Source: Botryllus schlosseri (Eukaryota). From it: a stretch of DNA of 64,000 nt. Below the pieces are notes generated by a model that worked only from the letters and a program-made list of their open reading frames with translations, did not search any database and was not told the DNA's origin. The DNA lies in contig CM119371.1 of the NCBI GenBank assembly GCA_051294905.1, positions 6,076,001 to 6,140,000 on the forward strand, written 5' to 3'. The first letter of the stretch is position 1; each line of letters opens with the position of its first letter. Below are positions 12,870 through 30,337 of the stretch, piece by piece. Position numbers and translations under genes: made by a program.

Positions 12870-12918
12870 AAGACATAACGTACTAAGCGAAAAATAATAT
12901 TGTGTGGACTGAAGGATA

Positions 12919-13083: not shown

Positions 13084-13345
13084 TTAATATGCTTGTTCGT
13101 TATTACTTCAAATAAACTGAACATGTGTATTTAATTGTGTAAAATGTGTTATAAAAGTCAGTCTACGGAAGTGAATAGACAAGTCTGAAGCTGTCTATAT
13201 TGCAGCGTATTAGAGATAGATTGTGCAATAACCTCTAAATACGGAGAGTACTGAACTTGAGTCAGTGATCTGCTTATAAACACAATGCCGCGCTCTCTCT
13301 CTCTCAACGGTGCTAACCCTCCTATGTTAGAGCAATTAAATTATT

Positions 13346-13561: not shown

Positions 13562-14045
13562 CATTGCTAGCATTCTGGAAACTTGCATTGGCATTTGACA
13601 TGCCACCAGCATTCGAATACCCAGCATTTCCAAAGCCAGCATTGGCATTTGGAAACCCCGCTTTAGCGCGATCCATAGGCTGTATTTGACCATTAGGCGC
13701 AATAAAACGCGACGTGTCTTGTAAAATCCACCCCAGCGGTGAATTTTCTACGTCATTGACGACGTTAGACGGAGAATATAATGTATATTCATCAGCGAGA
13801 TTGATTTGCTGAAAGTATTCGACGCCTTCTCGAGTATAACACGCAACCAGTTTCCCGTTATGACTTAAAGTTGCTTTGAATCTTTGTATGGCACCATTCG
13901 TTGGAAACACACGTAGTTGTCCAGGATCAATCAATTGATCGTCTGCAGTTTCAATTCGAAGCTTCGATACGTTATTGAAAACGTAAACATCTCTCCGAAT
14001 AGCTATTTCTGAGAGTTGCGACTCGGCCCGAATAGCGATAGACAT
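13485..14045 (-). CDS. Orphan protein with N/A/G/F low-complexity C-terminus (186 aa)
   Basis: ATG ORF directly downstream of the BIR gene; beta-rich N-half; tail GFPNANAGFGNAGYSNAGGMSNANASFQNASNANGAFPNGN. Confidence 0.7.
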   Translation of the reverse strand: MSIAIRAESQLSEIAIRRDVYVFNNVSKLRIETADDQLIDPGQLRVFPTNGAIQRFKATLSHNGKLVACYTREGVEYFQQINLADEYTLYSPSNVVNDVENSPLGWILQDTSRFIAPNGQIQPMDRAKAGFPNANAGFGNAGYSNAGGMSNANASFQNASNANGAFPNGNTQYGYRRWMPSNSQQF

Positions 14046-14079
14046 AATTCAATCTAAACAAAACGTATACATTAAAGAT

Positions 14080-14466
14080 TCAACGGAAACTGTTATGCGG
14101 TATACGAATAAGCACGTTGCGAAAGAACTTTGAATCCTTTGCTAATTTCATGATCAGGGGACAGGAAGGATTGAGTGTAGCATGCTCGCTCCAAACATTT
14201 GTACAATTTGTCAAGTTATCAAACAATTGCCCACACATATAGCACTTGGCATGGAAATCGAACCCTAAGTGGAATAGCCCGCAAGTTGCGAGTTCAAAAG
14301 CATCAACTCTGAGATTCTCTTTATGAGATTCGAATGATTGCAAGCGTCGATCGAAATTCATTTTAGGAAAGACAGGGTGATTTAATAAATCACAAGGTTC
14401 ATATAGTATCTCGTCCTCTGAATTCTTCATGCATTGATGCGTTCCACACGGCTTGATCTTTTCCAT
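14080..14466 (-). CDS. Single-BIR IAP/survivin-like protein (128 aa)
   Basis: RRLQSF...ELATCGLF...KCYMC...WSEHATLNPSCP: CxxC...H...C zinc ligands with BIR spacing; TATAAAAA at 14508-14515. Confidence 0.9.
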   Translation of the reverse strand: MEKIKPCGTHQCMKNSEDEILYEPCDLLNHPVFPKMNFDRRLQSFESHKENLRVDAFELATCGLFHLGFDFHAKCYMCGQLFDNLTNCTNVWSEHATLNPSCPLIMKLAKDSKFFRNVLIRIPHNSFR

Positions 14467-14544
14467 GTTTCTTGAATAGAACTGAAATTATGGACTAGCT
14501 ACTGAGGTTTTTATAGAGCTGAGCGTGTGCTTTTCCCTGATTTT

Positions 14545-14885
14545 TTTGAATCTTAAATTTAAAAATGACTGCTTCGAAATCTCGAACGTTGTACAACTGT
14601 TTCGCAACTTTCAACTATCGCAGTTTCAAATTCAAAAAATTCAAAATCACGGCTGTTTCGCAGCTGTTATTTTTGAAATTTAAAAATGATTGATCGATTT
14701 CTCGGTCGTTGCACAACTGTCGACTGCTGCCGATTTAAATTCAACGTTCTGAAATCACGCCTGTTTCACAGCTGTTATTTTTTAAATTTAAAATGATTGA
14801 ATATCACGAATGCAACTGTCGATTACTGCAGTTTCAAATTCATTGAAATCACGGCTGTTACGCAGCTGTTTCGCAGCTGTCAACT
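14545..14885. repeat. Three degenerate ~110-bp tandem repeats in the divergent intergenic region
   Basis: Recurrent AAATTTAAAAATGA(C/T)TG and AAATCACG(G/C)CTGTT(T/A)C(G/A)CAGCTGTT blocks. Confidence 0.75.
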
Positions 14886-15110
14886 AGCGTGGGATAGTTT
14901 CATAGCTGGATACAATCATGTGTTATACTATGATCGCGAACAGTACTGGGGGCTTACAAACTCACGTGAATACCTGTGCATTGGAACTTAAGTCCAAGGC
15001 TCTCAGCCAACCTAGTAGGTATTTACGGCATTTTGCCTCAGCTATGCAAGTAGTATTTAGAGATAGCAGTGATATCCAATAAGTCATTTGCGTTTTTTGA
15101 TATTTTAGAG

Positions 15111-15620
15111 CAGAGGTCTCAAACACGCGTCCTGCGAGGTCATTTTATGCAACCGCGATGGTATTTTGAATTTCGAAGTATTCGACAATATTTAACTTTG
15201 AAAACTGGAAATTCACCCTAAAACAACTCCAGAAGCCTGAAACTACTTATCAAATGTCACTATTACGTCACTTTGAAAAGTTACGACGCAATGGAAGATC
15301 AATGTATACTTCGGCGATAGGACATTATTTCTATTGCTATGACACAGTAATCATTATATTCAAGTTGTTATAGATCTGTTCTAATATTCAGAGGTAAATC
15401 CAATGCTGATTGAATTTGAATTAGGTAATAACATGATCAATACCATCGTTATCCTGAGTATGCACGAAACTCGGATTAGGCTGTAGTGTCCATTAGCTAC
15501 AAAATTATAACGCGACAGCTTTTACGATTAATTATTGATGCTGCGACTCGCGGTGCCATCAAAAAGTAAGAAATTTGCATGCAAATTTGCCCGCGGGCGC
15601 ATATGATTTTGAGTCCTCTG
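15111..15620. mobile_element. Charlie-like hAT MITE inside the Polinton
   Basis: TIRs CAGAGGTCTCAAA / TTTGAGTCCTCTG, subterminal GCCCGCGGG; 8-bp flanks TTTTAGAG / CTGTACGG match only 4/8. Confidence 0.75.
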
Positions 15621-15760
15621 CTGTACGGGATCAACTAAGTTCGTGCAGGTGCGTTTTGTTATTGTTGAGCACAGCTATTATTAGTGAATAGATTTTCAAC
15701 GGTTTAGATACGCTAGATATTCGAATACGCGACTTGACTTTAGTTAGTATCATATTGAGA

Positions 15761-17035
15761 ATGAATACTGTGCAAGTCGCTAACGAGATGAATCAAGTCG
15801 CTAATGACAATGCGAGTTGTAGTACGACTCAAGTTGACGTGATTGACCTCACTGGTGATGATAGCAGTAAAGGTAAATCGACCAACTCGATTGAAAGTTT
15901 TGATTGGCAAAACACGCAACCTTTTGTTAAAATTCATCGTGTGGATGAGAATCTACAGAGTGAAGAACCTCCAGTCAAAATTCGTTGTACGGAAGCGACG
16001 TGTGCAGAGATACGCAAAATTATGAAAGATGGTTATTTTGGTGTAGCGCCTGCAAACAAGCGAGAAGATACACAAACAGCGATGTTAAGTGGCTTGTCTG
16101 ATGATGATGATTCGAGTTCGACGATGATATCGAATATTAGATCGTTAGCTAGTGATCAAAGTGCCTCGTCTGATTCTGATTCAACAAATGACGTATCCTC
16201 GGTTGATAGTGATCGTCGACGCTCTATGATTTCTGTTATTCGACTGTTGCGCGAATCCAATACGAGTGAAATTCTGCCAAGTGAATATAGGAGCGATCGA
16301 AAATTCATTAAAGTGATCGAAAAGTTAAGTCCTCAACCCACGATTCAAAATGCTAGTTGTATGTATTCTGCACTTGAAAAAAATATCACCGAAATTTGGT
16401 ATGCCGGCCAAATGCGTAGTCTTAATTTCCTCAGAGCTGTATTCGTTGTTTGCATCTTTGAAGGTTATGTTCGCCGCAGAGATATAGCCCCGAATTTTTG
16501 GTTTGAGGGTGATTGTCATTCTGGTAAAGACATACTGACTCATATGTTTTTGACTAGAGATGTAGCAAACTATGTATTGAGTACTTTGGAAAAGTTGGAT
16601 GCATTCAGATATTACGATGCTGACAAATCTATTTGCATGTTTCCGAATTGCGGTAGTATTTTCATGAATAATGCTGTTCTCCAAGAAACTATTATGACAG
16701 TACAACGCACAGCTGTGAGCTGTGATTATGGCTTGATTAAGCCTGCCTCTTTCTGGATGTTTTGTGATGTGAAAAATGGTTCTGAGATCATGACTGAAAA
16801 GTATCCACTATCATTTGCCGGAAAAACTATTATCGTAAAATTTGGAAATAAACTTTTCGATCCGTCAGTAGAAGTGTTGAATGATCACGGTCGCGATACT
16901 GTTCTGTATTCGTTATTGAATCTTACTTCAGTAAAAACTCGCGATGCAGGCAATGAAGTAGAAACTGATATGCATGCAACGAGTTTCTATGATAAATTTC
17001 GTGAAATCAAACGTGTTTACGACGAATGTGAATGA
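15761..17035 (+). CDS. Orphan protein (424 aa), acidic/Ser-rich disordered N-half with SIM-like motif
   Basis: Long ORF, first ATG at 15761; VDVIDLTGDD; SDDDDSSS tract; globular-looking C-half. Confidence 0.8.
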   Translation: MNTVQVANEMNQVANDNASCSTTQVDVIDLTGDDSSKGKSTNSIESFDWQNTQPFVKIHRVDENLQSEEPPVKIRCTEATCAEIRKIMKDGYFGVAPANKREDTQTAMLSGLSDDDDSSSTMISNIRSLASDQSASSDSDSTNDVSSVDSDRRRSMISVIRLLRESNTSEILPSEYRSDRKFIKVIEKLSPQPTIQNASCMYSALEKNITEIWYAGQMRSLNFLRAVFVVCIFEGYVRRRDIAPNFWFEGDCHSGKDILTHMFLTRDVANYVLSTLEKLDAFRYYDADKSICMFPNCGSIFMNNAVLQETIMTVQRTAVSCDYGLIKPASFWMFCDVKNGSEIMTEKYPLSFAGKTIIVKFGNKLFDPSVEVLNDHGRDTVLYSLLNLTSVKTRDAGNEVETDMHATSFYDKFREIKRVYDECE

Positions 17036-17133
17036 ATTTGATGCATGTTGATTCAGTACTAATTCAATATTTTGATGCATGCGTGTCGATACAGTGCTAA
17101 TTGGATCTTTTTTTGTGTTGTTTGTAGCTCAGT

Positions 17134-17544
17134 ATGGATAACTTCATTGACATAAGCGACTTGTTAGATATGAACGCACCTCATCAAAGTGTAAATGCTA
17201 CGATGCAGGCTCCAAGAAAAGACTTGAACAAAATATATCAGAGTCAAAAAGAAAGCCGAAAGCGCTCGCGTCAAGACACTATGTCTTTGATCGAAGGTCT
17301 AGTTGACGATGATTTAAAGATGGAAGCTATGTGGAATCAACTTGTTTCGATGGAAGTATTTGACCAAGACTATTCGAAAAATTTTCTGAACATAATTAAA
17401 AATGTCATGAAAGATATTGAAAAACTATCTAGTGACTCGAACGCTTGCATTGTTGAGATTCAGCGTCTTGAAAAAATTAAGTTTGTATTTCTATACGGTG
17501 TAATTAAATGTAAACTGCGCTTGAAATATGGATTCAATTTCTAA
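17134..17544 (+). CDS. Orphan helical protein (136 aa)
   Basis: ATG ORF filling the gap before polB; pyrimidine-tract/AG acceptor 6 nt upstream. Confidence 0.7.
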   Translation: MDNFIDISDLLDMNAPHQSVNATMQAPRKDLNKIYQSQKESRKRSRQDTMSLIEGLVDDDLKMEAMWNQLVSMEVFDQDYSKNFLNIIKNVMKDIEKLSSDSNACIVEIQRLEKIKFVFLYGVIKCKLRLKYGFNF

Positions 17545-17592
17545 TATATGTAGTGACTATTGTCTTGATATTTTTCAGATACTAGTATCTAT

Positions 17593-20500
17593 ATGGCGCG
17601 ACGCAGGCGATATGGAGATCGAGGATTTGTGGTCGACGAAACGCTGGGTTTCGAACAAGACGGCATTGAGGTGATTGAAAGACACTACGATTCCATCATC
17701 GATTCGACCTGGACTTCAAGGAACAATGTGCAAGAAATCATCAACATTCGAATGGTCGGAAGAGCTCCGCTCGAAATTCACGCGCGTATAGCAGACATTT
17801 ACCCCAGAAGATACCGTCAGTTTAAAATGAATCTGGCGTATGGCTTTCTATTATTCAACCGTGAGACATCCAGATATAGTTATTATCATCCTCAGAGTTC
17901 ACAAGCGGTTTTTAATGTCCCTAAAACTATCATATCGCGTGAAGATTTCGATACCGTCACGAATGAGATCGATTTGACAGCGGGTTTTGAATATGCAAAT
18001 CGAGTGCGACCAGATACAAAGTTCTACTGTGCTGATGTGTTGCATATTTCTATTTACATTTATGAAATGGATAGAGCTTTACTCGGTGGAAGTACTTCCA
18101 TTTCCCCGGAGATGCAAGCACTAAGCAAATGTAACTATATCATGACTTTCCTGCGTAATCGCGAAGGCAAAGCATATGCAGATTCTCTGTGCATATTCAG
18201 ATCCATTTCATATGTGATGAAAAAAGCGCGTAATGAAACACATGTTCTGCAATTAGCCGCTCAATTCACAGCTCGTTACGATATCTCAACTGAGAACGGA
18301 GTAGCTTTCGAAGACTTATCAAAAGTTGAGGAATGTTTTCAAGTTCGAATACTGCTTTATGAAAAACGTAATCAAGGCACAGTTATGCTGCGTAATTCTC
18401 GTGCTAATGGATTGACTATACCTATTCATAGACTTGAAAATCACTGTTGCCTGATTAGGGACCTGAAATTGTACACCTCTACCTATATGTGTGATAAGTG
18501 TAAATTTTTCTTTACTAGAAAAGATGCTTTGATGAGGCATATGAAAAGCGTTGATTGTGAGCGTCCCCAAAAACAGCGATACGGTTTCGGTATTTATCGT
18601 CCTAAGATGACGGTGTTTGAGCGAATGGCGGAACAGGGAATTTTGGTTAGTACTGAAAAACGATATTACCCCTTCAGAATCGCTTATGATTTCGAGAGTT
18701 TATTAGAAAAAGAAAATCTTCGAGCTGATACACCGAAAGTCGAAATTGTCAACAAGCATGTTGCGGTATCGGTATCTCTCTCAGATAATGTTACGAATGA
18801 AACGCATACACTCATTTCTAGCGGTGATCCTAACGTTTTAATTAACGATATGGTGGGCAAACTGTATGAGATTCAAAACATCGCATCTTTGCATATGCGA
18901 CGGTTATTTGAAAAAGAATTGAAAGATTTTCGTATGCTAATTGAACGTCGTAATGCGATTGAACCAGGCAAAACTCGCTATTTAGATCGCTTGTATCGTC
19001 ACTTCGAAATTTGGTTGGATCAAATACCTGTGATTGGATTCAACTTGGCTCGTTACGATTTGAATCTTTGTAAAAAATATTTGATTCCTATTCTGCAAGA
19101 AGAAAGTGGATTTTTCGTTTTGAAACGGAACAGCGCATATCTGACTATTAGTACCAACAGATTGAAATTCCTTGACATTTCGCTATTTCTGTCACCGGGA
19201 TATAGTTTGGAAGCGTATTTGAAAATTTATGGAAATGGTGTGGACAACAAATTTTATTTTCCCTATGAGTACATGACTTGTATCGATAAATTGAATGACA
19301 CGCAATTACCTCCACATGAAATGTTCTATAGCAGTCATCGAGGCACTAATATCACCGCGGCGCAATACCAAGAATGTGTCGATATGTGGAATCGTTTGCA
19401 AATGAAAACCATGCGAGACTTCCTAACTTTTTATAACGAAAGTGACGTGATTGGCTTTTTGGTTGCGTTAGGTAATAACGCTGCCTTTTACCAAAACTTG
19501 GGTATTGACATGTTCAAATCTGCTATCAGCTTACCAAACATAGCCAATCAACTCATGTTCGCGGAATGTTACGACATCGCGCTGTTCAGTAAAGCGAATG
19601 CTGATCTCCATCAAACTGTAGTGAACAATCTATTTGGAGGTCTGTCACAGATATGTTCACGATTTGCAATGAAAGACGTAACGAAAATTCGTGAAATGCG
19701 CTACGGAGATGATGCGAAATACGTAAAAAAGATAATAGGATATGACGCAAATTCGCTCTATTTGTCATCCATTGATCAATACATGCCGTGTGGATTTCCA
19801 ATCAGGTGGTTGTATGACGCAACCAAACAAAAATTTCACAGAAAGCCAATTTATCCTGCGATGGCAGAACTCGAATGGCTGACTTATGAAAGTTATCAGC
19901 GCGGTATTTCAATTCAACACGCCTGGAACGGCAAGCAAGCTCGTCTTGGGTCGCGTCAAATTGCGGTCGATGGCTTCTCCCTTGAGCATCAATTGATATT
20001 TCAGTATCAGGGGTGTTTTTTTCATTCGTGCGATCAATGTTATAAGGACGCCGCAAACATTGAGCGACGTATTAAAACAGAAGAAATTACTGCCTATTTC
20101 GAAGAGTTGGGATACACGATAATATCAATACGCGAATGTGAATGGAATCGCATGAAACTCCACCCTGACATTGCGCAGTTTCTTTCGTCACTACAAAGAA
20201 ATGTAACAAAAGAGTATTATCTCACAGCGGACCAACTATTAGATCGCGTATTTCATCAACAGTTCTTTGGCGCATTAGAAGTCGATGCGCACTGCCCTGA
20301 TGAATTAAAAGAAAAATATTCAGAATTTCCGCCATTTTGTAAACATATCTCGGTAGATATATGCGATATCGGCGAACATATGAGCGAATATGCCCGCGAA
20401 AATAATGTGAAATTTCCGAAGACGTTTTTGGGCTCTAGTTATTTCACTGAGAAACAACTAATTACAAGTGATTTGTTGGCTTGGTACATGGATCACGGTA

Positions 20501-21459
20501 TGATTATTTCGCGCATATATCAAGCTGTGGAATTTGAACGCAAACGACCATTTCAAAAGTTTGTGAATTCTGTTGTTACGCAAAGGCGAAAAGGTGATAT
20601 CACGCCTAAAGACCCAGCACGTGAAATAGAGGCCTTAACCTTTAAATTTTTAGGAAATGCCGCTTTTGGGTCTACTATACAGAACCCAACGAAGTACAGA
20701 AATCATACCTATGTAAAAAGTGATAAGTTGAAATCACATATTCAGAAAAAAAACTTTATTGACGTCAATGAACTCTCTGAAGATCTGTTCGAGGTTAGCT
20801 CGTTACCAGATTCCATTAACGTCGATCAACCGATCATTGTAGGTTTATTCATCTTCAATTCGAGTAAATTACGCATTCTTTCGTTTCTGTATGACTTTTT
20901 ACATGAGTATGTAGAGGAATGTGACTTCAGCTACATACAAGGAGATACCGACAGCGAATATTTTAGTATTTCAGCTGATTCAATCTACTCCTTAATTAAA
21001 CCTTCACGAAGGAAAGAATTTTTTCAAGTTCATGATGAATGGCTCATACAGAGAGCTTGCGCGATGCATCGGGCAGACTTTGAGCGTGACCCAATCGCTT
21101 TCAAAACCACCGAACCGTGCTGTATCGCTGCTTACAATTATGCTAAACGAATTCCTGGTCTGTTTAAAGTAGAATGGGAGGGTCTGAAGTTCATTGGATT
21201 GAACTCGAAAACCTATTACTGCGAGGGTGAGACTGATAAATATTCATCCAAAGGTTTGAGTAAATCCGCTTGTAAGACCTTCAAGGATTTTGAAGGAGTG
21301 TTGCAAAACCGTACATCTTGCGGAGGTATTAATTCTGGGTTTCGCACCTTCAATGGGGATATCTATACTTATAAGCAATATCGTTCTTCTTTGTCGTATG
21401 GTTACTATAAAAGAGTTGTTTTGGCAGATGGCATACATACTGTACCGCTTTCATTGTAA
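17593..21459 (+). CDS. polB: Protein-primed family B DNA polymerase (1288 aa)
   Basis: ExoI AYDFES, ExoII GFNLARYD, ExoIII YNESDV, PolA GYDANSLY, PolB KFLGNAAFG, PolC GDTDS; C2H2-like finger and Vsr-like insert. Confidence 0.97.
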   Translation: MARRRRYGDRGFVVDETLGFEQDGIEVIERHYDSIIDSTWTSRNNVQEIINIRMVGRAPLEIHARIADIYPRRYRQFKMNLAYGFLLFNRETSRYSYYHPQSSQAVFNVPKTIISREDFDTVTNEIDLTAGFEYANRVRPDTKFYCADVLHISIYIYEMDRALLGGSTSISPEMQALSKCNYIMTFLRNREGKAYADSLCIFRSISYVMKKARNETHVLQLAAQFTARYDISTENGVAFEDLSKVEECFQVRILLYEKRNQGTVMLRNSRANGLTIPIHRLENHCCLIRDLKLYTSTYMCDKCKFFFTRKDALMRHMKSVDCERPQKQRYGFGIYRPKMTVFERMAEQGILVSTEKRYYPFRIAYDFESLLEKENLRADTPKVEIVNKHVAVSVSLSDNVTNETHTLISSGDPNVLINDMVGKLYEIQNIASLHMRRLFEKELKDFRMLIERRNAIEPGKTRYLDRLYRHFEIWLDQIPVIGFNLARYDLNLCKKYLIPILQEESGFFVLKRNSAYLTISTNRLKFLDISLFLSPGYSLEAYLKIYGNGVDNKFYFPYEYMTCIDKLNDTQLPPHEMFYSSHRGTNITAAQYQECVDMWNRLQMKTMRDFLTFYNESDVIGFLVALGNNAAFYQNLGIDMFKSAISLPNIANQLMFAECYDIALFSKANADLHQTVVNNLFGGLSQICSRFAMKDVTKIREMRYGDDAKYVKKIIGYDANSLYLSSIDQYMPCGFPIRWLYDATKQKFHRKPIYPAMAELEWLTYESYQRGISIQHAWNGKQARLGSRQIAVDGFSLEHQLIFQYQGCFFHSCDQCYKDAANIERRIKTEEITAYFEELGYTIISIRECEWNRMKLHPDIAQFLSSLQRNVTKEYYLTADQLLDRVFHQQFFGALEVDAHCPDELKEKYSEFPPFCKHISVDICDIGEHMSEYARENNVKFPKTFLGSSYFTEKQLITSDLLAWYMDHGMIISRIYQAVEFERKRPFQKFVNSVVTQRRKGDITPKDPAREIEALTFKFLGNAAFGSTIQNPTKYRNHTYVKSDKLKSHIQKKNFIDVNELSEDLFEVSSLPDSINVDQPIIVGLFIFNSSKLRILSFLYDFLHEYVEECDFSYIQGDTDSEYFSISADSIYSLIKPSRRKEFFQVHDEWLIQRACAMHRADFERDPIAFKTTEPCCIAAYNYAKRIPGLFKVEWEGLKFIGLNSKTYYCEGETDKYSSKGLSKSACKTFKDFEGVLQNRTSCGGINSGFRTFNGDIYTYKQYRSSLSYGYYKRVVLADGIHTVPLSL

Positions 21460-21463
21460 TAAA

Positions 21464-22084
21464 ATGAACCGTGCACGTGTTTTATACTCGCCTCTTCGTA
21501 TGATAATTAGTGGAGCTTCGTGCAGTGGAAAAACAGTTTTTGCCTATAGAATCGTACAAAATGCTAACAAGCTAATCGTACCTCGACCGAGAAAGATCAT
21601 CTGGTTATATAATAACTATCAACCGTTGTACGACAAGATGCAAGGAGTGACATTTTACAAGGGCCTAGACAAATTGAAAGATTTACAGAGAGCTAAAGAT
21701 GAACATACGTTAATTGTGTTAGATGACATGATGACAGAAGCAAGTCAAGTACGTGAACTGTTCATTAGAAAAAGTCACCACCTGTCACTCTCAGTTTTAT
21801 ATTTATGTCAAAATCTATTTCACCGAGGAGCAGGCTTCCGTGATATTACGCTGTCTAGCAACTATATAGTCATCATGAAAAATCCTCGTGATTCTGCACA
21901 GATTCGATATCTGTCACGTCAAATGTTCCCAGATAAACCAAACCTTCTCACGGAAGCTTACAAGAGAGCAACTCGTAAGGCTTATTCATATATCCTGGTC
22001 GATTTGACGCAGGAAACATCCGAACAGTATCGACTTCGCAGCAACATTTTTCCAAGCGAACGTATGACCGTGTATTCGGAATAA
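21464..22084 (+). CDS. A32-like DNA packaging ATPase (206 aa)
   Basis: Walker A GASCSGKT, Walker B LIVLDDM, RKSHH, IVIMKNPRD, Y.Y+LVDL.Q. Confidence 0.95.
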   Translation: MNRARVLYSPLRMIISGASCSGKTVFAYRIVQNANKLIVPRPRKIIWLYNNYQPLYDKMQGVTFYKGLDKLKDLQRAKDEHTLIVLDDMMTEASQVRELFIRKSHHLSLSVLYLCQNLFHRGAGFRDITLSSNYIVIMKNPRDSAQIRYLSRQMFPDKPNLLTEAYKRATRKAYSYILVDLTQETSEQYRLRSNIFPSERMTVYSE

Positions 22085-22119
22085 ATAGCGCTGTACTCGA
22101 ACATTCACTATCATTCGCA

Positions 22120-22524
22120 ATGGCGAGGTCACGTGGTGTTTTGAAAAAAACTTTAAATAATCATCTTATCAAGTTGAAGTTGCTAAAGAGTGCTAAAAAG
22201 AAGGAACGTAACGAGCTATTAACTCACAAAGCTTTTACCGCCTGTGTGTGTGAGTGTCTTCGTAACCTTGTCTCGGGCAATATAGCTATTTCAAGTACGA
22301 GTAAGGCACGATTGAAGAAGTATAAAAGTAACATTCGCAAAGTGTTGTGCTGCAAATCTCAAAAACAGAAGCAAAAAACATTACAACAGGGTGGCTTTTT
22401 ATCAGGTGAATATACATGCGATTCGATTCGATTCATGATCTAACTTTAATGATTTATAGCGATCTTAAGTGCTGCGATTCCGATTATTGGAAGTCTGTTA
22501 GGCGGATTGACTAAACATGCGTGA
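22120..22524 (+). CDS. Spliced basic core protein, adenovirus pX/pVII-like (116 aa; exons 22120-22405 and 22460-22524)
   Basis: Removing a 54-nt GT...CTAAC...AG intron gives ...QQGGFLSAILSAAIPIIGSLLGGLTKHA*, like adenovirus pX GGFLPALIPII. Confidence 0.8.
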
Positions 22525-23080
22525 ATTGTACTTTCCTCCTTTACAATCAAAAGACGCCTACGAAAAGAAATTCAATGAACATATCGCTAGCATCAGGGAC
22601 TCTGATTTGACACGCATCGAAAAATTAGCACTATTTCAACACGGCATTAGACTATTGAGAAACCTACGTGCGAATAAGAAATCGATCAAGTCGTCGACCC
22701 GCGCACCGCCAGCGGCCGCTACCAATGAAACAATTAGCGCGTCGAAACCGCCCGGAGCGGCGCTCGCTATTAATAACACATTTGACGCGACACCTCCGTC
22801 GACGCCCGAGATTTGGAGCAATTACGAAGCAGTAACTCCACCCCATACGCCTAAAACTTCAAAGAAAAAGGTTAAAAAGAAGAAGAAAGCCACTCCGTCC
22901 GCAACACCCGAGATTTGGAGCAATTACGAAGCAGTAACTCTACCCCATACGCCTAAAACTTCAAAGAAAAAGGTTAAAAAGAAGAAGAAAGCCAATAAAC
23001 CTCCTGTTAATTGGCAAAGCATTGACGGTCCGCGCAAACGAAAGCCGAATCAACGCTACACAGGAAAGTTATGGACATGA
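22517..23080 (+). CDS. Lys/Pro/Thr-rich protein with 34-aa duplication (187 aa)
   Basis: ATG ORF; repeat TPEIWSNYEAVT(P/L)PHTPKTSKKKVKKKKKA; stop overlaps integrase ATG (ATGA). Confidence 0.8.
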   Translation: MRELYFPPLQSKDAYEKKFNEHIASIRDSDLTRIEKLALFQHGIRLLRNLRANKKSIKSSTRAPPAAATNETISASKPPGAALAINNTFDATPPSTPEIWSNYEAVTPPHTPKTSKKKVKKKKKATPSATPEIWSNYEAVTLPHTPKTSKKKVKKKKKANKPPVNWQSIDGPRKRKPNQRYTGKLWT

Positions 23081-24090
23081 CGCTAGCTAACAAGAGAGAC
23101 TATTTCGATCCCCGCAAACCAAACTCCTATAGAGGAGCTTATTTACAGAATGACAAAGAATGGTTGAAATCAGAACAAAGTTATACCCTGCATTTTCCTA
23201 TACGAAAAAAATTTACTCGCGAGAAGGTGGTGGTCTCTGGAATTGATAGTCAGTTTCAAAGCGATTTGATTGATGTGCAGTCTATTTCTAAATACAATCG
23301 TGGATTTAGATATCTGGCTTTGGTTATTGATACGTTTTCAAAGTTTGTGTGGTTGATTCCAATTAAAGATAAAACTGGTCGCAGTATGATTTCTGCTTTC
23401 CGACAAGTGTTCAATGAGAGGCTGCCTTTAGTGTTGCAGACTGATAGAGGTACAGAATATACCAATCGAGCTTTTCAAAACTTTCTCAAGAAAAATAAAG
23501 TTCGTTACTTTTACACAAAAAGCGAATTGAAATCGTCTCAGGCCGAGCGTTGGATTCGCACTTTCAAGGCAATCTTGTACCGCTATTTCACGAAGAATAA
23601 CACCAGTAAATACATCGACGTGCTGCAGGATTTCGTATATTCCTACAATCACACTAAACATACGTCGTTAGGTATGGCTCCAAGTCAAGTCAATTCACAT
23701 AATCAAGAAGCTATTTGGCAAAAAATGTATGGGTTTCGACAAGCTACACTTCCCACTCTGACGAAAGGAACAGCCGTACGCATTTCGAAAATTCGCGGGC
23801 TTTTTGAAAAGAGCAGTAGACCCAATTGGACAACTGAGATATTTTATATCATTGACGCAATGGCTGGCGACCCTCCGATGTATCGCTTGCGTGACTATAA
23901 TCATGACGTTATCGATGGTAGGTTTTACAGAGAAGAACTACAGCTGGTGACCGAACCTACAGAGTGGCGTATCGAAAAGATTATAAAGACACGTCAACGC
24001 GCCAAACACCGTCAGTATTTAGTTAAATGGATAGGATATGGAGCAGAGTTCAACTCCTGGATCGATCAAAAAGATATCGTCAAACCGTAA
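23071..24090 (+). CDS. int: Retroviral-type (rve) integrase with C-terminal chromodomain
   Basis: QSDLID, LQTDRGTE, AERWIRT (D,D,E); chromodomain IEKII...YLVKWIGYGAEFNSW. Start at 23071 or 23077. Confidence 0.96.
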   Translation: MDMTLANKRDYFDPRKPNSYRGAYLQNDKEWLKSEQSYTLHFPIRKKFTREKVVVSGIDSQFQSDLIDVQSISKYNRGFRYLALVIDTFSKFVWLIPIKDKTGRSMISAFRQVFNERLPLVLQTDRGTEYTNRAFQNFLKKNKVRYFYTKSELKSSQAERWIRTFKAILYRYFTKNNTSKYIDVLQDFVYSYNHTKHTSLGMAPSQVNSHNQEAIWQKMYGFRQATLPTLTKGTAVRISKIRGLFEKSSRPNWTTEIFYIIDAMAGDPPMYRLRDYNHDVIDGRFYREELQLVTEPTEWRIEKIIKTRQRAKHRQYLVKWIGYGAEFNSWIDQKDIVKP

Positions 24091-24250
24091 CTTTTATCAG
24101 TTCATCGCTCAAGTCGTGGTTATACTAATCATAGTGATTTTTTCACTCTACAATTTGACAATCGTTCAAGAAAACAAGGAGCTTTGGGTATCGTTATTAT
24201 CATCGTGTGTGGGTTATATGTTACCAGCTCCAAAAATACCTAAACTATGA
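24038..24250 (+). CDS. Small membrane protein (70 aa)
   Basis: Hydrophobic FIAQVVVILIIVIFSLYNL and WVSLLSSCVGYMLPAP; stop overlaps the next ATG (ATGA). Confidence 0.65.
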   Translation: MEQSSTPGSIKKISSNRNFYQFIAQVVVILIIVIFSLYNLTIVQENKELWVSLLSSCVGYMLPAPKIPKL

Positions 24251-25086
24251 GTTATGTGACGTTATTTTCGAATGGTTCTATGGATATGTTTCCTGACAAT
24301 ACAACCGCACAATATGTCAATGAAATACAGACGGCTAGAAATGTAGAGAGAAATGAGATCGCTCTGACGGAGATCAGTTTTCCTAGAGATTTTGAAAAAC
24401 GTATCGAGTCACGTGCTTCTTTCGGATTCGAAATTACGGGTTTCGAACAAAGCTTTAGGAGATTTAGGTTGAAAACTGGACAATATGACTCGCTCTACGC
24501 CATGTTTAAAACCTTGGAAAGTATCAACCCTGATGTAGCAGTAAACTGTTTTCCTGAGAGCAACACCCTAACTGTGTCAATTCCACACGAAGACAGCACA
24601 GATATCTTATATCCTGGAGTGGATACGCGATATAGTATCGTGACCAGAGAGAACGATTATACAGCAACGTTGAAGAATATAGAAACTCCAGATGCCTACA
24701 CTCTCGCGACTTTCACATTACCAAATACAGCAGCGCTATCCGCATACTCTTTCTCAAAGAAAAAAATACATTTCAATTTCGATATAACACCCGTACCATC
24801 AATTGACTTTGTATACGTTCATTGCGATATTATTGAACCGCAAGAATTCAATGGTACATTACAGCGCCTATTGCGAGTGGTGAAAGTCGAGGGAGATAAG
24901 AAGGCGTTTTCCAAATACTACATAAAGCCTTTCTTCTTCCCTGTAAATATAAATAGATTGGAACGTATAAAAATATCTTTGTTAGATGTCAATGGTGTAA
25001 AAATTCCATTTCGGAGTGCACCGTCTATAGTGCCGTACTGCAATTTCGAAAGCGTGCTATTGCGTTATGAAATACATCCACATTAG
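24247..25086 (+). CDS. Minor capsid (penton-like) protein 1
   Basis: YVTLFSNGS.DMFPDNT, EIALTEISFP, YVHCDIIEPQ, LLRVV, IKISLLDVNG; possible frameshift near 25033. Confidence 0.85.
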   Translation: MSYVTLFSNGSMDMFPDNTTAQYVNEIQTARNVERNEIALTEISFPRDFEKRIESRASFGFEITGFEQSFRRFRLKTGQYDSLYAMFKTLESINPDVAVNCFPESNTLTVSIPHEDSTDILYPGVDTRYSIVTRENDYTATLKNIETPDAYTLATFTLPNTAALSAYSFSKKKIHFNFDITPVPSIDFVYVHCDIIEPQEFNGTLQRLLRVVKVEGDKKAFSKYYIKPFFFPVNINRLERIKISLLDVNGVKIPFRSAPSIVPYCNFESVLLRYEIHPH

Positions 25087-25816
25087 CAGTTCGAAATCGG
25101 ATTTTGTAGTTGACTTAGCACGCCCCATCACTGGAAAATGGGAGTTGGGGCTTGCGGAATTTTCAGTTCGTAATCAGTTTCAAACTACTTTACCGCATTT
25201 CAATGGATTGTTATGGGAATTTCAAGAGGAAAAATCATCTGCTCTGTTGGCAACGCAAAGCAATAATTATTTTTTCTATCCAAATGGGGATTATTATGAT
25301 TTCAAAAGCTTGATCGATAGAATCAATCGTAGTCAGACAAAGGTATGGATAAATCAGCTGTCAAGTTCAACAGCTATGCTAGTCATTCCCCCTAGCGAAG
25401 CAGGTGCCTTTCCGAATTTCCGAAGAAATCCAAAGAGAATCAGAAACCCGGTTTTCGTATATGGGAATCTTAAAGAACAAAATTTACCGCAAGGAAAATA
25501 TTTAACTTCGCAAATGTACCTGCGAAATGATATTGAACCTATCAGTAATTTATTGGTCTATACCGATCTCATTCGACCGCAAACAGTCGGTGATACGAAT
25601 GCACCACTATTGCGAAATATCCCTATAACAGCAGCTAACAATGAATACCAACATCACATTTTTGAGAAAATCTACTTTTTCCCTATGATCACGGAATATG
25701 CCAATCGAATTAGAATTAGTATTAGAGACGATAAAGCGGAATCTATAAATCTGAATGGTTCTGTAGTTCATATCACACTTGCTTTACGTCACGATGAGGG
25801 CACATTACTGTTGTGA
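25067..25816 (+). CDS. Minor capsid (penton-like) protein 2
   Basis: SDFVVDLARPITGKWELGLAEFS, VYTDLIRPQTVGDTNAPLLRNI, IRISIRDD. Confidence 0.85.
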   Translation: MKYIHISSSKSDFVVDLARPITGKWELGLAEFSVRNQFQTTLPHFNGLLWEFQEEKSSALLATQSNNYFFYPNGDYYDFKSLIDRINRSQTKVWINQLSSSTAMLVIPPSEAGAFPNFRRNPKRIRNPVFVYGNLKEQNLPQGKYLTSQMYLRNDIEPISNLLVYTDLIRPQTVGDTNAPLLRNIPITAANNEYQHHIFEKIYFFPMITEYANRIRISIRDDKAESINLNGSVVHITLALRHDEGTLLL

Positions 25817-26162
25817 TCGTGAAGCTTTTCAACACTATTATCGAAATCAAAGCGGAGCGGGCATAAACTACTTTCGAGGTCGAGTGCAAAGAGGTCACGG
25901 TCTAGGTAATCTATTTCGTAGTTTGGGACGTAGTGTGGTTCCCTTGATTTCCAAAGGAGCGAAAGCTCTGGGTAGACAACTACTTCACACTGGGGCTGAA
26001 GTCGCGTCTGATGTATTGGGAGGACAAAACATCGGCGAAAGCTTTAAAATCAGAGGAAATCAAGCTGCTAGTCAAGCACTTGATAATTTCCTGGGAAAGA
26101 GAAAAGCACCTAGAAAGAAAAATACCAAACGGAAAAAACGTCGTCGGGATATTTTTGATTAA
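25794..26162 (+). CDS. pVI-like / membrane-active internal virion protein (122 aa)
   Basis: YYRNQSGAG, QRGHG followed by amphipathic LGNLFRSLGRSVVPLISKGAKALG; basic tail. Confidence 0.75.
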   Translation: MRAHYCCDREAFQHYYRNQSGAGINYFRGRVQRGHGLGNLFRSLGRSVVPLISKGAKALGRQLLHTGAEVASDVLGGQNIGESFKIRGNQAASQALDNFLGKRKAPRKKNTKRKKRRRDIFD

Positions 26163-26212
26163 ATACAAATAGTAAGCCTTCCTCTTTTCATTTACAAGTA
26201 GACTCGCGGAAC

Positions 26213-27490
26213 ATGACGGAGCTGATTCATAGCAAATCTGCTGAAGGTATTCATCCGTCTTTAGATCTTTACCAGATACCACCTACTCAGACGAGTGTAG
26301 AGAAAATACGTATCATCAAGATACCTCCTGTTTCGGACAATGAGAGCGTTATAACTTTCAGATATGAGGGGTGTGGAGATTTCATAGATCTAAGCGAATC
26401 TTATTTTTTATTTCGTCTGAAACTGCTGAACGGCGATGCGGATTTAGTCGCAAATGATGATATTGGTGTTGTCAATAACATTTTAGATTCAATGATTTCA
26501 CAACTTCACATTAAAGTTGGAAATCACACGATCAAGCAGGATATTAAACTACAAGCGTATTCGGCCTACTTGAACTATCTGTTCGCCCCACAAGACGTAC
26601 AAACGTCAACTCTTTTGACACAGGGTTGGGTCAAGGATACCCCTGAGCAATTAGATGATAAAGCTATAGGCGATGATGCAGCTAACAAAGGTCACAACGC
26701 GAGAAGTTTGCCTTATGCAACCAGTAAAGTTGTTGAAATAAGAGGTCGAATACATCACGGATTATGCTTACAAGACCGTTACATTCTGGATGAGGTACCC
26801 TTGGAGTTCGAACTCACTTTGAACCCGAAAAGTTTTTTTCTGTTTGGATTGAATACTAGCAATTTCAAAATAATTAAAAAAGAGCTGCAATTGTGCGGCG
26901 TGAAAGTAAGCGAAGATGTGAAATCCGCAATGATGGTCGATGCTCCAGCTAGATATCCGTACATGGACATGAAACTTCTGAGCAGAACTTTCGCAGCTAA
27001 CACCACTCAAATCGATATTGGTAATCTGTATTCGGGTACTCTACCGACTCGTTTAATCATCGGTATGGTAGCGACTAGCGCATTCCAGGGTGCGTTCGAT
27101 AAAAATCCATACAATTTTATTCATAACAAAATGAAACGTGTCGAATTGAAAGTCAATGGTTTCCTGATACCGGAAGGTGGATACGAACTTGATTTTGAAA
27201 ACAATCACTATTCTGAAGCCTATCTCAACATGGTTCAAGGCATAGGAGCTCTCGAAAAACAGATCGGAGTCCTTACCCCGAAGGAATTCGCTAATGGATA
27301 TACTCTTCTAGTATATAACTTGCGAGCTGATGATCTAGACGACTGTTTCGAACTGCAGAAAAGCGGCACAGTTAGTCTGCGGATCACTTTTCCTGCTGAT
27401 GGTGTTGCGAGCGAAACAACTCTGCTTTGTTTCATGGAATTCCAAAAAATACTAGAAATAAGCCAAGGTCGCACGGTTACTATAATATGA
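26213..27490 (+). CDS. Major capsid protein (double jelly-roll, hexon-like; 425 aa)
   Basis: LDLYQIPPTQTSV, IDLSESY, NNILDSMISQL, PTRLIIGMV...FQG...NPYNF; lies before the protease as in Polintons. Confidence 0.93.
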   Translation: MTELIHSKSAEGIHPSLDLYQIPPTQTSVEKIRIIKIPPVSDNESVITFRYEGCGDFIDLSESYFLFRLKLLNGDADLVANDDIGVVNNILDSMISQLHIKVGNHTIKQDIKLQAYSAYLNYLFAPQDVQTSTLLTQGWVKDTPEQLDDKAIGDDAANKGHNARSLPYATSKVVEIRGRIHHGLCLQDRYILDEVPLEFELTLNPKSFFLFGLNTSNFKIIKKELQLCGVKVSEDVKSAMMVDAPARYPYMDMKLLSRTFAANTTQIDIGNLYSGTLPTRLIIGMVATSAFQGAFDKNPYNFIHNKMKRVELKVNGFLIPEGGYELDFENNHYSEAYLNMVQGIGALEKQIGVLTPKEFANGYTLLVYNLRADDLDDCFELQKSGTVSLRITFPADGVASETTLLCFMEFQKILEISQGRTVTII

Positions 27491-27939
27491 ACGGACTAGA
27501 AATAGATGAAATATTGTATAGTTACGATTCTACCAAACGACATTATCTAGGAAATTTTCCTATTGATCGACTTCCTCGGCGACCGAAACCTCCCTACTCA
27601 TTAATCATTAATTACGATGAGGCCGACGAACCAGGAAGTCACTGGGTATGCATCTACGCTGATGAACATGGAACTCATTTCCACGACAGCTTCGGTATAC
27701 CTCCGTTCAGAAATGAAATACCCTGTTTCCTAGAACCTGAAAAGTATACCAGTTCGATCAAACCATTACAGCACAAACGTTCAGAAGCTTGCGGAGCCCA
27801 CGCAATTTCATTCCTAAGCTGTCGCAGTGATGGCATGAGCACACTGTCTTATTTAGAGCACTTCGGAAAAGATAAGAAACACAACGACAGTATAGTCTGG
27901 GACTTTCTTCAAAAATTAAAACGAAATGCGAGCAAATAG
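27487..27939 (+). CDS. Adenain-like cysteine protease (150 aa)
   Basis: GSHW, HDSFG, LQ...CG (H-D-Q-C); ATG overlaps the MCP stop (ATGA). Confidence 0.95.
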   Translation: MNGLEIDEILYSYDSTKRHYLGNFPIDRLPRRPKPPYSLIINYDEADEPGSHWVCIYADEHGTHFHDSFGIPPFRNEIPCFLEPEKYTSSIKPLQHKRSEACGAHAISFLSCRSDGMSTLSYLEHFGKDKKHNDSIVWDFLQKLKRNASK

Positions 27940-28249
27940 CTTCACTGTCATACAGTACTTTGGTGATGATGAGAAGATTCAACTGAAAATCAGAGAAAAA
28001 GTCATTGTAATGAATCCTGAACGCATTCACAGACTTTCATTCGATAGCTTTCATATACGTATTTATCCACATGACCGAGATATTACATTATTCATTGGAA
28101 CTGATTGCTTACCTGTACGCTTTCCTAACCATTGTATGTACATAGACGTGTTATCGAAACATAGAATTGCTCAACAAATCAGTGAAGAATTTGTTGTTTT
28201 TCGTAGACTAAAAATCTGTGAATTTCTGACTAGAGCATCGCGTATATAA
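27926..28249 (+). CDS. Orphan protein (107 aa)
   Basis: ATG ORF overlapping the protease end; tight packing. Confidence 0.6.
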   Translation: MRANSFTVIQYFGDDEKIQLKIREKVIVMNPERIHRLSFDSFHIRIYPHDRDITLFIGTDCLPVRFPNHCMYIDVLSKHRIAQQISEEFVVFRRLKICEFLTRASRI

Positions 28250-28265
28250 GTCACAATATCTTTCT

Positions 28266-28376
28266 ATGGAACATGTCGATGATATCTTAGCTGTCGTGTT
28301 CATTGTTCTGCTTACTATTTGTTGTATACTGGAATGGATATCGTATTGCTGTCAAGAACAAGCTAGTGAAGCATGA
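28266..28376 (+). CDS. Small single-pass membrane protein (36 aa), not in the ORF track
   Basis: MEHVDDILAVVFIVLLTICCILEWISYCCQEQASEA*; stop overlaps the next ATG (ATGA). Confidence 0.55.
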   Translation: MEHVDDILAVVFIVLLTICCILEWISYCCQEQASEA

Positions 28377-28696
28377 CCATGGCTAGAATTTCCGTTGGTG
28401 CACAGTTTGATTCGAGTCGTAATTATGAAGAAATGATTGTATTACCTAACGTGAGATCAATTACCATTCCCTATACGTGTATACTTTTCCATTATGATAA
28501 TAGAATTGTAGTGAAACCCATAGAAGATTGTGTTACGCACTCGTCGCGTAATATCATTGTCTGTAAAGACGAACATTATCGTGTGCTTTATAAATCACCC
28601 TTAGTTATTGATTTCAAGGGTAAGGCAATTGTTGTTGGTAATATAATCCTATTCCAAGTGTTTTGGGATGGATGTGTTCGATTCATAACTCAATAA
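28373..28696 (+). CDS. Orphan beta-rich protein (107 aa)
   Basis: ATG ORF whose TAA stop is part of an AATAAA signal. Confidence 0.6.
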   Translation: MTMARISVGAQFDSSRNYEEMIVLPNVRSITIPYTCILFHYDNRIVVKPIEDCVTHSSRNIIVCKDEHYRVLYKSPLVIDFKGKAIVVGNIILFQVFWDGCVRFITQ

Positions 28697-28818
28697 ATCA
28701 CTGATTTCGACTCGTGTTCTTTTCTGTTCGGTCGTGTTTATCCTGAGGCGCATCCCTTAGCTAGTAGAGAAATGCAGATTCGTCAATAAACCTTCAGTTA
28801 CGTAGATTCGTCAATAAA
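28692..28818 (+). terminator. Three polyadenylation signals in short repeats
   Basis: AATAAA at 28692, 28785, 28813 within repeated (GATTCG)TCAATAAA(TCACTG). Confidence 0.55.
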
Positions 28819-28982
28819 TCACTGTTTCTAACTCGCGCTATTTATCATATAACCAACAAAGACACATTATGGAGTTTTTATTACAAAAGGTTGCGCGCAG
28901 TCTTTTCAAAGCACACCGTTGTGAGTGACAATCAAAAAATGATGATATTGCGTCAGTCATTAGCAATTCAACGGAAAAATAG

Positions 28983-29054
28983 TGGAGAATACGGGAATTG
29001 AACCCGTGACCTACTGTTTGCAAGACAGCCGCTCTGCCGCTGAGCTAAATCCCC
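28983..29054 (-). tRNA. tRNA-Ala(UGC)
   Basis: GGGGATT TA GCTC AGCGGCA GAGC G GCTGT CTTGCAA ACAGT AGGTC ACGGG TTCAATT CCCGT ATTCTCC A; complete cloverleaf, G3:U70, A73; TTTTT 3 nt downstream. Confidence 0.92.
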
Positions 29055-29077
29055 AAGTGATAGTGACGGCTTAAGTG

Positions 29078-29377
29078 TTAGTTTTCAACAGTAGCATTAG
29101 CAAATTTAAGAGATAGCTCTACTGTAGCCGTTGACTTGAAAACAACTCGATGTTCTTCTTTCGTTACTTCAGTATCGTATATCTTCATTGTTTTTCTTTC
29201 GTCATGATCACATGGTACCAGCTCTGTATAATTACATCCTTCACATTCTACTATAGTGAAAGGATACGATATTTCAACTGAATCCACACCAAGCATTTTC
29301 ATACATTTCGAATATACTATCCATGATACGGTCTTGGATCCAATAAACTTATTACCGTTTATTCGCACGGAACCCAT
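29078..29377 (-). CDS. Orphan protein (99 aa)
   Basis: ATG at 29377 (MGSVRINGNKF...), TATAAA ~40 nt upstream, CEGC/C motif. Confidence 0.55.
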   Translation of the reverse strand: MGSVRINGNKFIGSKTVSWIVYSKCMKMLGVDSVEISYPFTIVECEGCNYTELVPCDHDERKTMKIYDTEVTKEEHRVVFKSTATVELSLKFANATVEN

Positions 29378-29414
29378 GATGTAAATATAACAAATAGTAA
29401 CTGCGATTGAGCCT

Positions 29415-29900
29415 TTATAAGTGATACCACGTGACAAAATGCTTCCATCCGCCATTTTCTTCAATCCACTTTAGTTTCCTAGTAGCAATGTAATTCCCGA
29501 CTGTTTGTATGATAGCATCTATATGCCTGCTATTATTGCGAGCAAGTATGCCGCCAAGCACATAGAGAGACACAATCCGACCCCAATTTTCTTGATTATC
29601 TTTGAACCTTCCATCGGCTATCATCAGGAACATTCGCTCAACGGGTGAATATTCTTTATCTTTCTCATTGACTTCAATATCACTATAACGAATGCGCTTG
29701 GAGACTGCGTTTAGGATGGTTCGATATCGCTCAAATATTTCATTAGCAACTCGTCGTAAGGTTTTCTCCACCTGCGTATTTGCTTTAACGCTTGAGCCGT
29801 CGATTTCATACATGATAAAATTTCTAGCTAAGGAATATGCCGTGGATATAATTTCATCCTTTTCTTCAGTGAGCGCAGGTGATACTCGCAATAACGCCAT
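29415..29900 (-). CDS. Bcl-2 family protein without C-terminal TM anchor (161 aa)
   Basis: BH4-like LARNFIMY, BH3-like LRRVANEI, BH1 NWGRIVSLYVLGG, BH2 WIEENGGWKHF; GCCATGG start context. Confidence 0.93.
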   Translation of the reverse strand: MALLRVSPALTEEKDEIISTAYSLARNFIMYEIDGSSVKANTQVEKTLRRVANEIFERYRTILNAVSKRIRYSDIEVNEKDKEYSPVERMFLMIADGRFKDNQENWGRIVSLYVLGGILARNNSRHIDAIIQTVGNYIATRKLKWIEENGGWKHFVTWYHL

Positions 29901-29954
29901 GGCTCTGAAGATAACAGTGAGCTCATGTGTACCAACCAAGTCAACGCAATACTT

Positions 29955-30012
29955 TTATAAGTGATACTACGCCACAAAATGCTTCCATCCGCCATTTTGT
30001 TCTATTCAATTT
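29955..30012 (-). pseudogene. Remnant C-terminus of a second Bcl-2 paralog
   Basis: 50/57 nt identical to the Bcl-2 3' end; reads N*IEQNGGWKHFVA*YHL*. Confidence 0.8.
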
Positions 30013-30337
30013 CTCAAGTTTTTCACGTGCGAACCTATACCAGTTTATCGGGTCAATCCGATTCATTATGACGTATATATCATTAGCAGTAATCTTGGAC
30101 ATATTCGATCTACAGCGCACAGCGAATAAATAATGAAGGTAATCAACTTACGCAATAATGATGTCATAATATCTCAGCGTTACTGAACTGGAACTATGCT
30201 ATCTCTCACACAACCAAAACCTCTCTCGTTTGGAAACACACCCATAATGTTCTGCGTTCTGATTGGCTAAGAGATGTCACGTAATTAAATACTCTAAGCC
30301 CATTGGTCCGCACCGCGATGCACTATCTATTACTACT
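30013..30337 (-). repeat. Right terminal inverted repeat (325 bp)
   Basis: Inverted copy of 12352-12677. Confidence 0.97.

Follow-up and report, generated by a model that had tools for sequence, protein, structure and literature searches.

The window that we analyzed, a 64,000-nucleotide (64-kb) stretch of Botryllus schlosseri DNA, contains a Polinton/Maverick element of 17,986 bp at 12352..30337. The element has AGTAGT...ACTACT ends and terminal inverted repeats (left, 12352..12677, plus strand; right, 30013..30337, minus strand) that differ at 3 positions in 326 nt, and a 6-bp target duplication, CCTGGG, flanks it at 12346-12351 and 30338-30343. Terminal inverted repeats, (AGT)2//(ACT)2 ends, and a 6-bp target duplication identify a Polinton/Maverick in the available text of PMC8097293, and we found all three. 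On the plus strand we found a family B DNA polymerase-like ORF of 1288 aa (17593..21459), an A32-like packaging ATPase (21353..22084; PF04665, Pox_A32, E 4.7e-8), a retroviral-type integrase with a chromodomain (23071..24090; PF00665, rve, and PF00385, Chromo), a double jelly-roll major capsid protein (26213..27490), and a likely maturation cysteine protease (27487..27939). The polymerase-like ORF was assigned by motifs only; its exonuclease and polymerase motifs occur in order, and a Pfam/PDB sequence search returned no polymerase match. The capsid was assigned from a predicted model of modest confidence (pLDDT 54.6) that matches the PBCV-1, Sputnik, and mavirus capsids (E 3e-12 to 8e-12). 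The protease ORF has no Pfam match and contains His, Asp, Gln, and Cys motifs in an order that we take to be the protease signature. The accessory arms carry cell-death-control genes recognized by Pfam: a Death-domain ORF that begins in the left inverted repeat (12588..12869, plus strand; PF00531, E 1.3e-10), a BIR (inhibitor of apoptosis) ORF (14080..14466, minus strand; PF00653, E 1.6e-9), and a Bcl-2 family ORF (29415..29900, minus strand; PF00452, E 7e-18). A 125-aa ORF with no Pfam family above the cutoff (29078..29455, minus strand) stops 24 nt upstream of the tRNA gene described below.

Other repeats are present in the window. An LTR retrotransposon lies outside the Polinton on the minus strand (5370-9307) and contains Gag-like and pol ORFs with reverse transcriptase, RNase H, and integrase zinc domains. 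Long inverted-repeat structures, foldback or MITE-like, occupy 55316-56914 and 36650-39720 in the host flank. Within the Polinton, about 520 nt at 15110-15631 are extra relative to one sister copy and resemble a small element that has been inserted and whose short ends are inverted.

A tRNA-Ala(UGC) gene of 72 nt, without an intron and without an encoded CCA, lies on the minus strand at 28983..29054, 1.3 kb inward from the right end of the Polinton. The first-pass annotation had proposed a Polinton-borne tRNA-Ala(UGC) here, and two programs agree with it inside the inverted repeats: ARAGORN called tRNA-Ala(tgc), minus strand, 28982-29054, as the sole tRNA in the 64 kb, and the only Rfam match within the window is a full-model RF00005 match at exactly 28983-29054 (69.3 bits, E 4.8e-13). 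The individual elements that had been claimed could each be read in the sequence. The anticodon is at 29022-29020 and the acceptor end has G1:C72, G2:C71, G3:U70, and A73. We take 29037..29047 and 28994..29004 to be the A box and B box, respectively, of an internal Pol III type 2 promoter, judging by the generally known consensus. A T5 run at 28975..28979, 3 nt past A73, is the predicted Pol III terminator. The cloverleaf, described as complete, matches the whole of RF00005 and forms 20/21 stem pairs but has one mismatch, U6/U67. In the available text of PMC9976931, G3:U70 is a conserved alanine determinant and G1:C72, G2:C71, G3:U70, and A73 form the conserved alanine set. Six of six distinct Polinton Ala variants retain G3, U70, A73, and the UGC anticodon.

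Comparison with host tRNA-Ala genes gave no sign of a pseudogene score. With Rfam bits standing in for the tRNAscan-SE score, the Polinton gene (69.3) lies at the level of the three host Ala(UGC) genes scored (68.3, 67.7, and 59.8). The gene thus has what characterizes a cytosolic tRNA-Ala gene, namely a host-like cloverleaf score, the Ala identity set, and A and B boxes with an oligo-T run. A tRNA-derived SINE or retrocopy was rejected; there is no A-rich tail in the sequence at 28983-29054, and each of the 25 genes of this type is found no more than about 3.5 kb from a Polinton capsid locus.

A search of the genome (495 Mb in 219 contigs) for capsid genes gave 277 candidates, of which we scored 99 and grouped these into families by identity. 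Family A has 12 loci (at least 97%), family B 14 (82-85%), family C about 45 (65-75%), and D1/D2 26 among those listed (32-34%). We fetched 42 capsid loci, a few of them in part (12 A, 11 B, 10 C, and 9 D), and ran ARAGORN on them. Ala(UGC) was found in 12/12 A copies, 10/11 B copies, 0/10 C copies, and 0/9 D copies; one host-like Phe tRNA gene lies just beyond a D repeat. A genome-wide pattern search returned 88 Ala genes, consisting of 12 A-type, 13 B-type (for 14 B capsid loci), and 63 host genes, and by exact pattern the host genes divide into 12 UGC, 13 CGC, and 38 AGC. In the A and B copies displayed, a T run (4-6 T) is similarly close to the tRNA, except that one B copy has 3 T. Judged by this distribution, the tRNA-Ala is Polinton cargo rather than debris, since it is carried by 12/12 A copies, 13/14 B copies, and 0/19 fetched copies of three more distant lineages. 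The earlier concern that it might be absent from other family copies and bear a SINE-like tail can therefore be set aside. We conclude that the tRNA-Ala(UGC) gene is real, conserved, and probably functional.

Two other tRNA genes occur in family A: Pro(UGG) in 11/12 copies, and Leu(UAA), which is intact in 8/12 and a decayed remnant in 4/12. All Polinton tRNA genes are on the strand opposite to the capsid gene. The only tRNA common to the window copy, the other A copies, and family B is Ala. The window copy is an outlier of family A; its fourfold-degenerate sites are 86% identical to those of other A copies, compared with 95% between two other A copies. What remains of its Leu(UAA) gene is a remnant at 14944..15016 (minus strand) with deletions in the D loop and T arm, which matches the family A gene at 57/83 positions and was called by neither ARAGORN nor Rfam. 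Because the inverted repeats differ at only 3/326 positions, this decay most likely predates the insertion and took place in the replicating lineage. Of the Pro(UGG) gene of sister copies, only the final 9 nt are left (28776..28784, minus strand), the remainder having been deleted. At the deletion (28776-28820), two short identical words have been brought together, and a short duplication comes next, which suggests that the loss was microhomology mediated. About 515 nt are also missing at 28895..28898, the junction where sister copies have a ubiquitin-conjugating (E2) gene. The tRNA-Ala of the window copy has 4-5 differences from that of sister A copies, two of which make for better pairing of the anticodon stem. 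By this comparison, Ala has been kept more constantly than the other two tRNAs, as the window copy deleted Pro and let Leu decay.

The copies also bear on selection. Between families A and B, the tRNA-Ala is identical at 62/72 positions and fourfold-degenerate sites at 41% (binomial P 5e-15), and between the window copy and other A copies it is identical at 68/72, compared with 86% of fourfold sites (P 0.02); these tests assume independent sites, and an old exchange of the Ala gene between A and B is compatible with them. Aligned between A and B, the 150-nt flanks of the Ala gene do not outscore shuffled sequence (the observed scores were reached by 17 and 275 of 300 shuffles). An alignment of 7 Polinton and 5 host rows has 96.8% of its stem cells paired, and 8/21 pairs in it have changed at both positions (acceptor stem, 3; anticodon stem, 4; T stem, 1), with a shuffle control that is inflated by the relatedness of the rows. 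Fifteen stem changes relative to a host gene leave 20/21 pairs, compared with 11.5 for random changes (0 of 20,000 trials). The Leu gene of the window copy serves as an internal control, having decayed to 57/83 in an element whose repeats differ at 3/326. Selection is likely to act on the Ala RNA, and since the acceptor and anticodon stems fall outside the promoter boxes, the constraint is most simply placed on the RNA.

The first-pass annotation had noted an anticodon arm resembling that of tRNA-Thr(UGU) and suggested a mosaic or diverged gene. The resemblance is there but modest: positions 27-43 match host Thr(UGU) at 10/17 and host Ala(UGC) at 6/17. Ala(UGC) genes of bacterial/phage tRNA arrays are closer (15/17 at the two loci compared), so a Thr mosaic is unnecessary, and we rejected it. 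The arm thus occurs in ordinary Ala(UGC) genes, and the gene as a whole is nearer to host Ala (52 matches to the best) than to host Thr (44). The best of 14 array pattern matches reaches 60/72 (L341), a similarity that is partly by construction, as the pattern was built from the Polinton arm with about 28 positions fixed and 596 Gb were scanned. A phage blastn search with the tRNA-Ala gave generic tRNA matches only, the best at 85% over 65 nt. Host Ala genes sampled match the Polinton gene at 50-55 positions; these identities do not come from the alignment in which one host row is shifted by a base. The other two cargo tRNAs are close to host genes (Pro, 65/72; Leu, 74/83), and Pro has two both-sided changes in its acceptor stem. 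The Ala gene may come from an old capture followed by compensated divergence, from capture in another host, or from a prokaryotic source.

Families and related elements differ in their remaining cargo. All 11 fetched B copies contain a caspase-domain ORF (PF00656, 246 aa; L023:2084-2824), which family A does not have, and Bcl-2 is absent from family B. One B copy (L111:4435-4509; G000:C9, near 5684440) has a family A-type tRNA-Pro beside its left inverted repeat, identical at 71/72 positions, which we read as a sign of cargo exchange between the families. In two copies (L031-L033 and L147-L148), one arm has been replaced by the other arm inverted (repeats of 838-934 nt, 99.9-100% identical); these are a possible step towards palindromic satellites. 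Such nonautonomous palindromic elements (L208-L213, L214-L216, and L220-L227; G000:C7:23111500-23130499 and others) have, in both arms, a tRNA-Leu(UAA) gene together with a complete or partial Bcl-2 gene. We found Leu and Bcl-2 arms in 9/9 palindromic elements fetched, which had been chosen by their Leu match, and almost no other Polinton gene in those examined. In the five longest, the arms are up to 99.6-99.96% identical over 5.5-12.6 kb. Flanked by a 6-bp target duplication and with AGTAGT ends, one palindromic element is 94-97% identical to part of the left arm of family C. Genome-wide, 145 Leu(UAA)-like sites match a loose pattern, with 6 of host type among the first 100 listed, and the one satellite Leu gene scored gave 36.1 Rfam bits. 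A further Leu(UAA) variant with a different 1:72 pair (L217-L219; G000:C4, near 20320900) has family A flanks, adjoins family C right-arm sequence, and is without core genes.

We propose that the Ala gene is transcribed by Pol III, charged with alanine, and used to supplement a scarce host U34 tRNA during synthesis of element proteins. On the sequence features, we consider this prediction somewhat better than an even bet. According to this model, host TFIIIC and Pol III would recognize both promoter boxes, with transcription ending at T5, and host enzymes would trim the ends, add CCA, and modify U34. Host AlaRS would charge the tRNA via G3:U70, and it would then decode GCA, plus GCG by wobble, on viral mRNAs. 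The benefit would arise when one nucleus contains many element genomes. Ala would be a member of a small exchangeable set (Ala-UGC, Pro-UGG, and Leu-UAA) kept in the accessory arms beside cell-death-control genes.

All three cargo tRNAs have U as the first anticodon base and read codons ending in A. The host has few genes with these anticodons (12/63 for Ala(UGC), 17/81 for Pro(UGG), and 6 found for Leu(UAA)), as counted by exact-pattern matches, which are lower bounds. GCA makes up 52/173 Ala codons in family A core genes compared with 41/266 in a host HSP70 set, and TTA 57/274 compared with 19/263 Leu codons, a two- to threefold higher use of both, the host sample being small (3,423 codons from one gene family). 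In families A and B together, GCA is also more frequent than in C and D (93/328 versus 83/427, P 0.005). The expected viral excess of GCA over the host was thus seen, but the excess over C and D belongs to a general A-ending shift of A and B in which GGA, GAA, CAA, and AAA rise too, and it is not significant against D2, a lineage of equal GC3 (P 0.23). We found no enrichment of CCA in family A over the host HSP70 sample or the other lineages. TTA use is equal in lineages with and without the Leu gene, and the window copy, which is without Pro and Leu genes, has unchanged CCA and TTA use. Lineage-specific codon compensation was therefore rejected for Pro and Leu, as CCA and TTA do not track gene presence. 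Lineage C, the most numerous, is tRNA-less in 10/10 fetched copies. Of the three roles offered by the first-pass annotation, translation support fits best, but codon usage backs it only in part.

A working decoder could also serve as a replacement that resists a host tRNA-cutting defense and is not matched to codon demand. The weak codon matching fits this, as do the differences from host genes in the anticodon loop (Ala 32 and 38, Pro 38, and family A Leu 32), the neighboring Bcl-2, BIR, Death-domain, E2, and caspase-like genes, and the 15/17 identity of the Ala arm to phage/mobile tRNA arrays, although the last is partly by construction because the pattern was derived from the Polinton arm. 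We know of no host nuclease for tRNA-Ala. Phage tRNAs provide a precedent in the available text of PMC10264068, and SAMD9, Schlafen, and RNase L are given as animal anticodon nucleases in that of PMC13191261. A genome search with the Schlafen AlbA_2 family, a weak exon-by-exon test, returned 0 candidates, the satellite Leu gene retains the host loop, and a broad cut could not be offset by three tRNAs. Nuclease escape as the role of the gene therefore seems unlikely to us, but taking it jointly with codon supply, we consider it quite probable from the sequence that the Ala gene is a working decoder. The RNA might instead be made without decoding, as a fragment source or as a decoy in the shape of a tRNA that engages cytochrome c during apoptosis or a stress kinase. 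tRNA binds cytochrome c, the Ala gene sits in an arm of cell-death-control genes, and the satellites keep the Leu tRNA and a whole or partial Bcl-2 gene per arm and almost nothing else of the Polinton. A decoy would not need the match between anticodon and amino acid identity that all variants maintain, but a mismatched tRNA-Ala would be toxic and also removed. The single satellite Leu gene that we scored reaches only 36.1 bits, and the terminator leaves no space for an appended hairpin, and we hold this reading to be quite doubtful. The more specific proposal of a Pol III decoy like VA RNA fails, as a predicted terminator 3 nt past A73 fits neither a VA-like RNA nor a tRNA plus hairpin; a tRNA-miRNA fusion was rejected with it, the tRNA being the sole Rfam match in the window.

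Another reading is a neutral passenger, taken up from a host and retained by chance or through a recent exchange between families. Exchange does occur, as the A-type Pro gene in one B copy (71/72) indicates, and Pro, Leu, and E2 have been lost or have decayed in several copies and Ala is missing in 1/14 B copies. However, A and B Ala genes differ at 10 positions in unrelated flanks, which argues against a recent swap. The gene has only 50-55 matches to the host Ala genes sampled, yet it is paired and has a host-like score, and a neutral tRNA gene (Leu) in the same element decayed. A passenger is thus very unlikely. Alternatively, the gene could act as DNA, either as a boundary bound by TFIIIC or as a mark for transcript processing, where the plus-strand core meets the minus-strand accessory genes. 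In the window copy and family B, no minus-strand gene lies between Ala and the point of convergence (in other A copies, Pro is the one next to it), and the first AATAAA found downstream of the 125-aa ORF is about 100 nt beyond the tRNA (28882-28877), so the mRNA of this ORF may run through the tRNA. However, Ala lies between two codirectional genes in 11/12 A copies, and G3:U70 would not be needed. Moreover, 7/8 pairs that changed on both sides belong to stems that the A and B boxes do not cover, and a role purely as boundary or promoter, such as the chromatin boundary between convergent units that had been suggested, does not explain these changes. We consider this reading the most improbable of all.

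Polintons are related to adenoviruses. Adenovirus VA RNA and the tRNA-like RNAs of gammaherpesviruses are products of nuclear DNA viruses of animals and take the form of a long hairpin RNA or a tRNA-miRNA fusion. Like them, the Polinton Ala is a Pol III type 2 gene; unlike them, it has a full cloverleaf, intact identity elements, and an immediate terminator. Phage tRNA arrays contain the same Ala arm, and phage tRNAs predicted to evade anticodon nucleases (available text of PMC10264068 and PMC11464382) share with the Polinton genes their anticodon-loop changes relative to the host. The phage case differs in that the Polinton tRNA is a eukaryotic Pol III gene, comes as one to three genes rather than as an array, and had no matching host nuclease in our Schlafen-family search. 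The protist polinton-like viruses (PLVs) of PMC12220804, like this Polinton, are small integrating double-stranded DNA elements with a double jelly-roll capsid and tRNA genes. The available text of that report counts 558 Rfam tRNA matches in about 8,300 PLV and virophage genomes, with 10 found by ARAGORN in cryptophyte PLVs, and proposes both codon compensation and defense against tRNA depletion. In contrast to the protist PLVs, the element here is a canonical integrase-bearing Polinton in an animal host, and beyond what that text provides, we have three named genes, copy-level evidence of selection, a loss series, and a comparison with host genes. Virophages are of the same size class and capsid type. 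They carry tRNAs in 18 high-quality genomes and 12 further sequences, according to the available text of PMC6905037, and two of their anticodons, Leu-TAA and Pro-TGG, are common to the Polintons; they differ in that no Ala is named there and in depending on giant viruses. The authors of that report consider capture at integration sites, whereas the Polinton Ala is 1.3 kb inside the right end and common to copies at many loci. The nearest described virus group is the MELD viruses/adintoviruses, and tRNA genes are drawn on their relatives. In the available main text of PMC8502044 there is a single mention, within a section devoted to nonanimal data sets, where the legend of Figure 6 marks predicted tRNA genes on MELD viruses that have other replicases.

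We found no literature report of tRNA cargo in animal Polintons in a search of article main texts, few of them from subscription papers, and the word "tRNA" is absent from the available main text of the Polinton papers PMC8097293, PMC11131425, and PMC6431247. IMG/VR returned no relatives for the capsid protein, its alignment, or a tight tRNA pattern. Among 80 metagenome capsid relatives at 25-32% identity, mostly fragments (15/80 are at least 8 kb), ARAGORN at its default threshold found no convincing tRNA cargo; calls at a lowered threshold were noise and were ignored. Only L299 has tRNAs, and we rejected these as cargo, as they are host-like Asp- and Tyr-type genes at the end without the polymerase and ATPase. 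Because these 80 distant, mostly fragmentary relatives are without convincing tRNA cargo, the cargo looks lineage restricted. As far as the available texts go, tRNAs are thus known in polinton-like viruses, virophages, and some MELD viruses; new are their presence in an animal Polinton and a window copy that shows which tRNA is kept.

A broader proposal, which we advance tentatively and think unlikely, is that animal Polintons both carry host-divergent, nuclease-resistant tRNAs as a counterdefense and reshape the host U34 tRNA pool when unsilenced. The second half was suggested by the numbers, as element genes outnumber host genes by 25 to 12 for Ala-UGC and by well over 100 to 6 for Leu-UAA-like genes. 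If the proposal is true, Polinton tRNAs would be the animal counterpart of those phage tRNAs that restore translation once host tRNAs have been cleaved, and the Leu-UAA-like genes, mostly on palindromic satellites, could serve a tRNA-less helper family in trans.

For annotation, two-thirds of the Ala(UGC) genes found by pattern are element borne and would distort estimates of host tRNA supply. The natural series of three tRNAs, one, and none within one genome makes codon supply and nuclease escape testable in an animal. The Ala gene has about 20 differences from each of the host Ala genes sampled, so Pol III activity of Polintons can be read unambiguously from ordinary tRNA-seq. The gene also bears on whether animal Polintons still act as viruses. 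A tRNA under selection at the RNA level would pay mainly for an element that translates proteins in bulk, and the Ala gene would thus give indirect support for a viral phase of Polintons.
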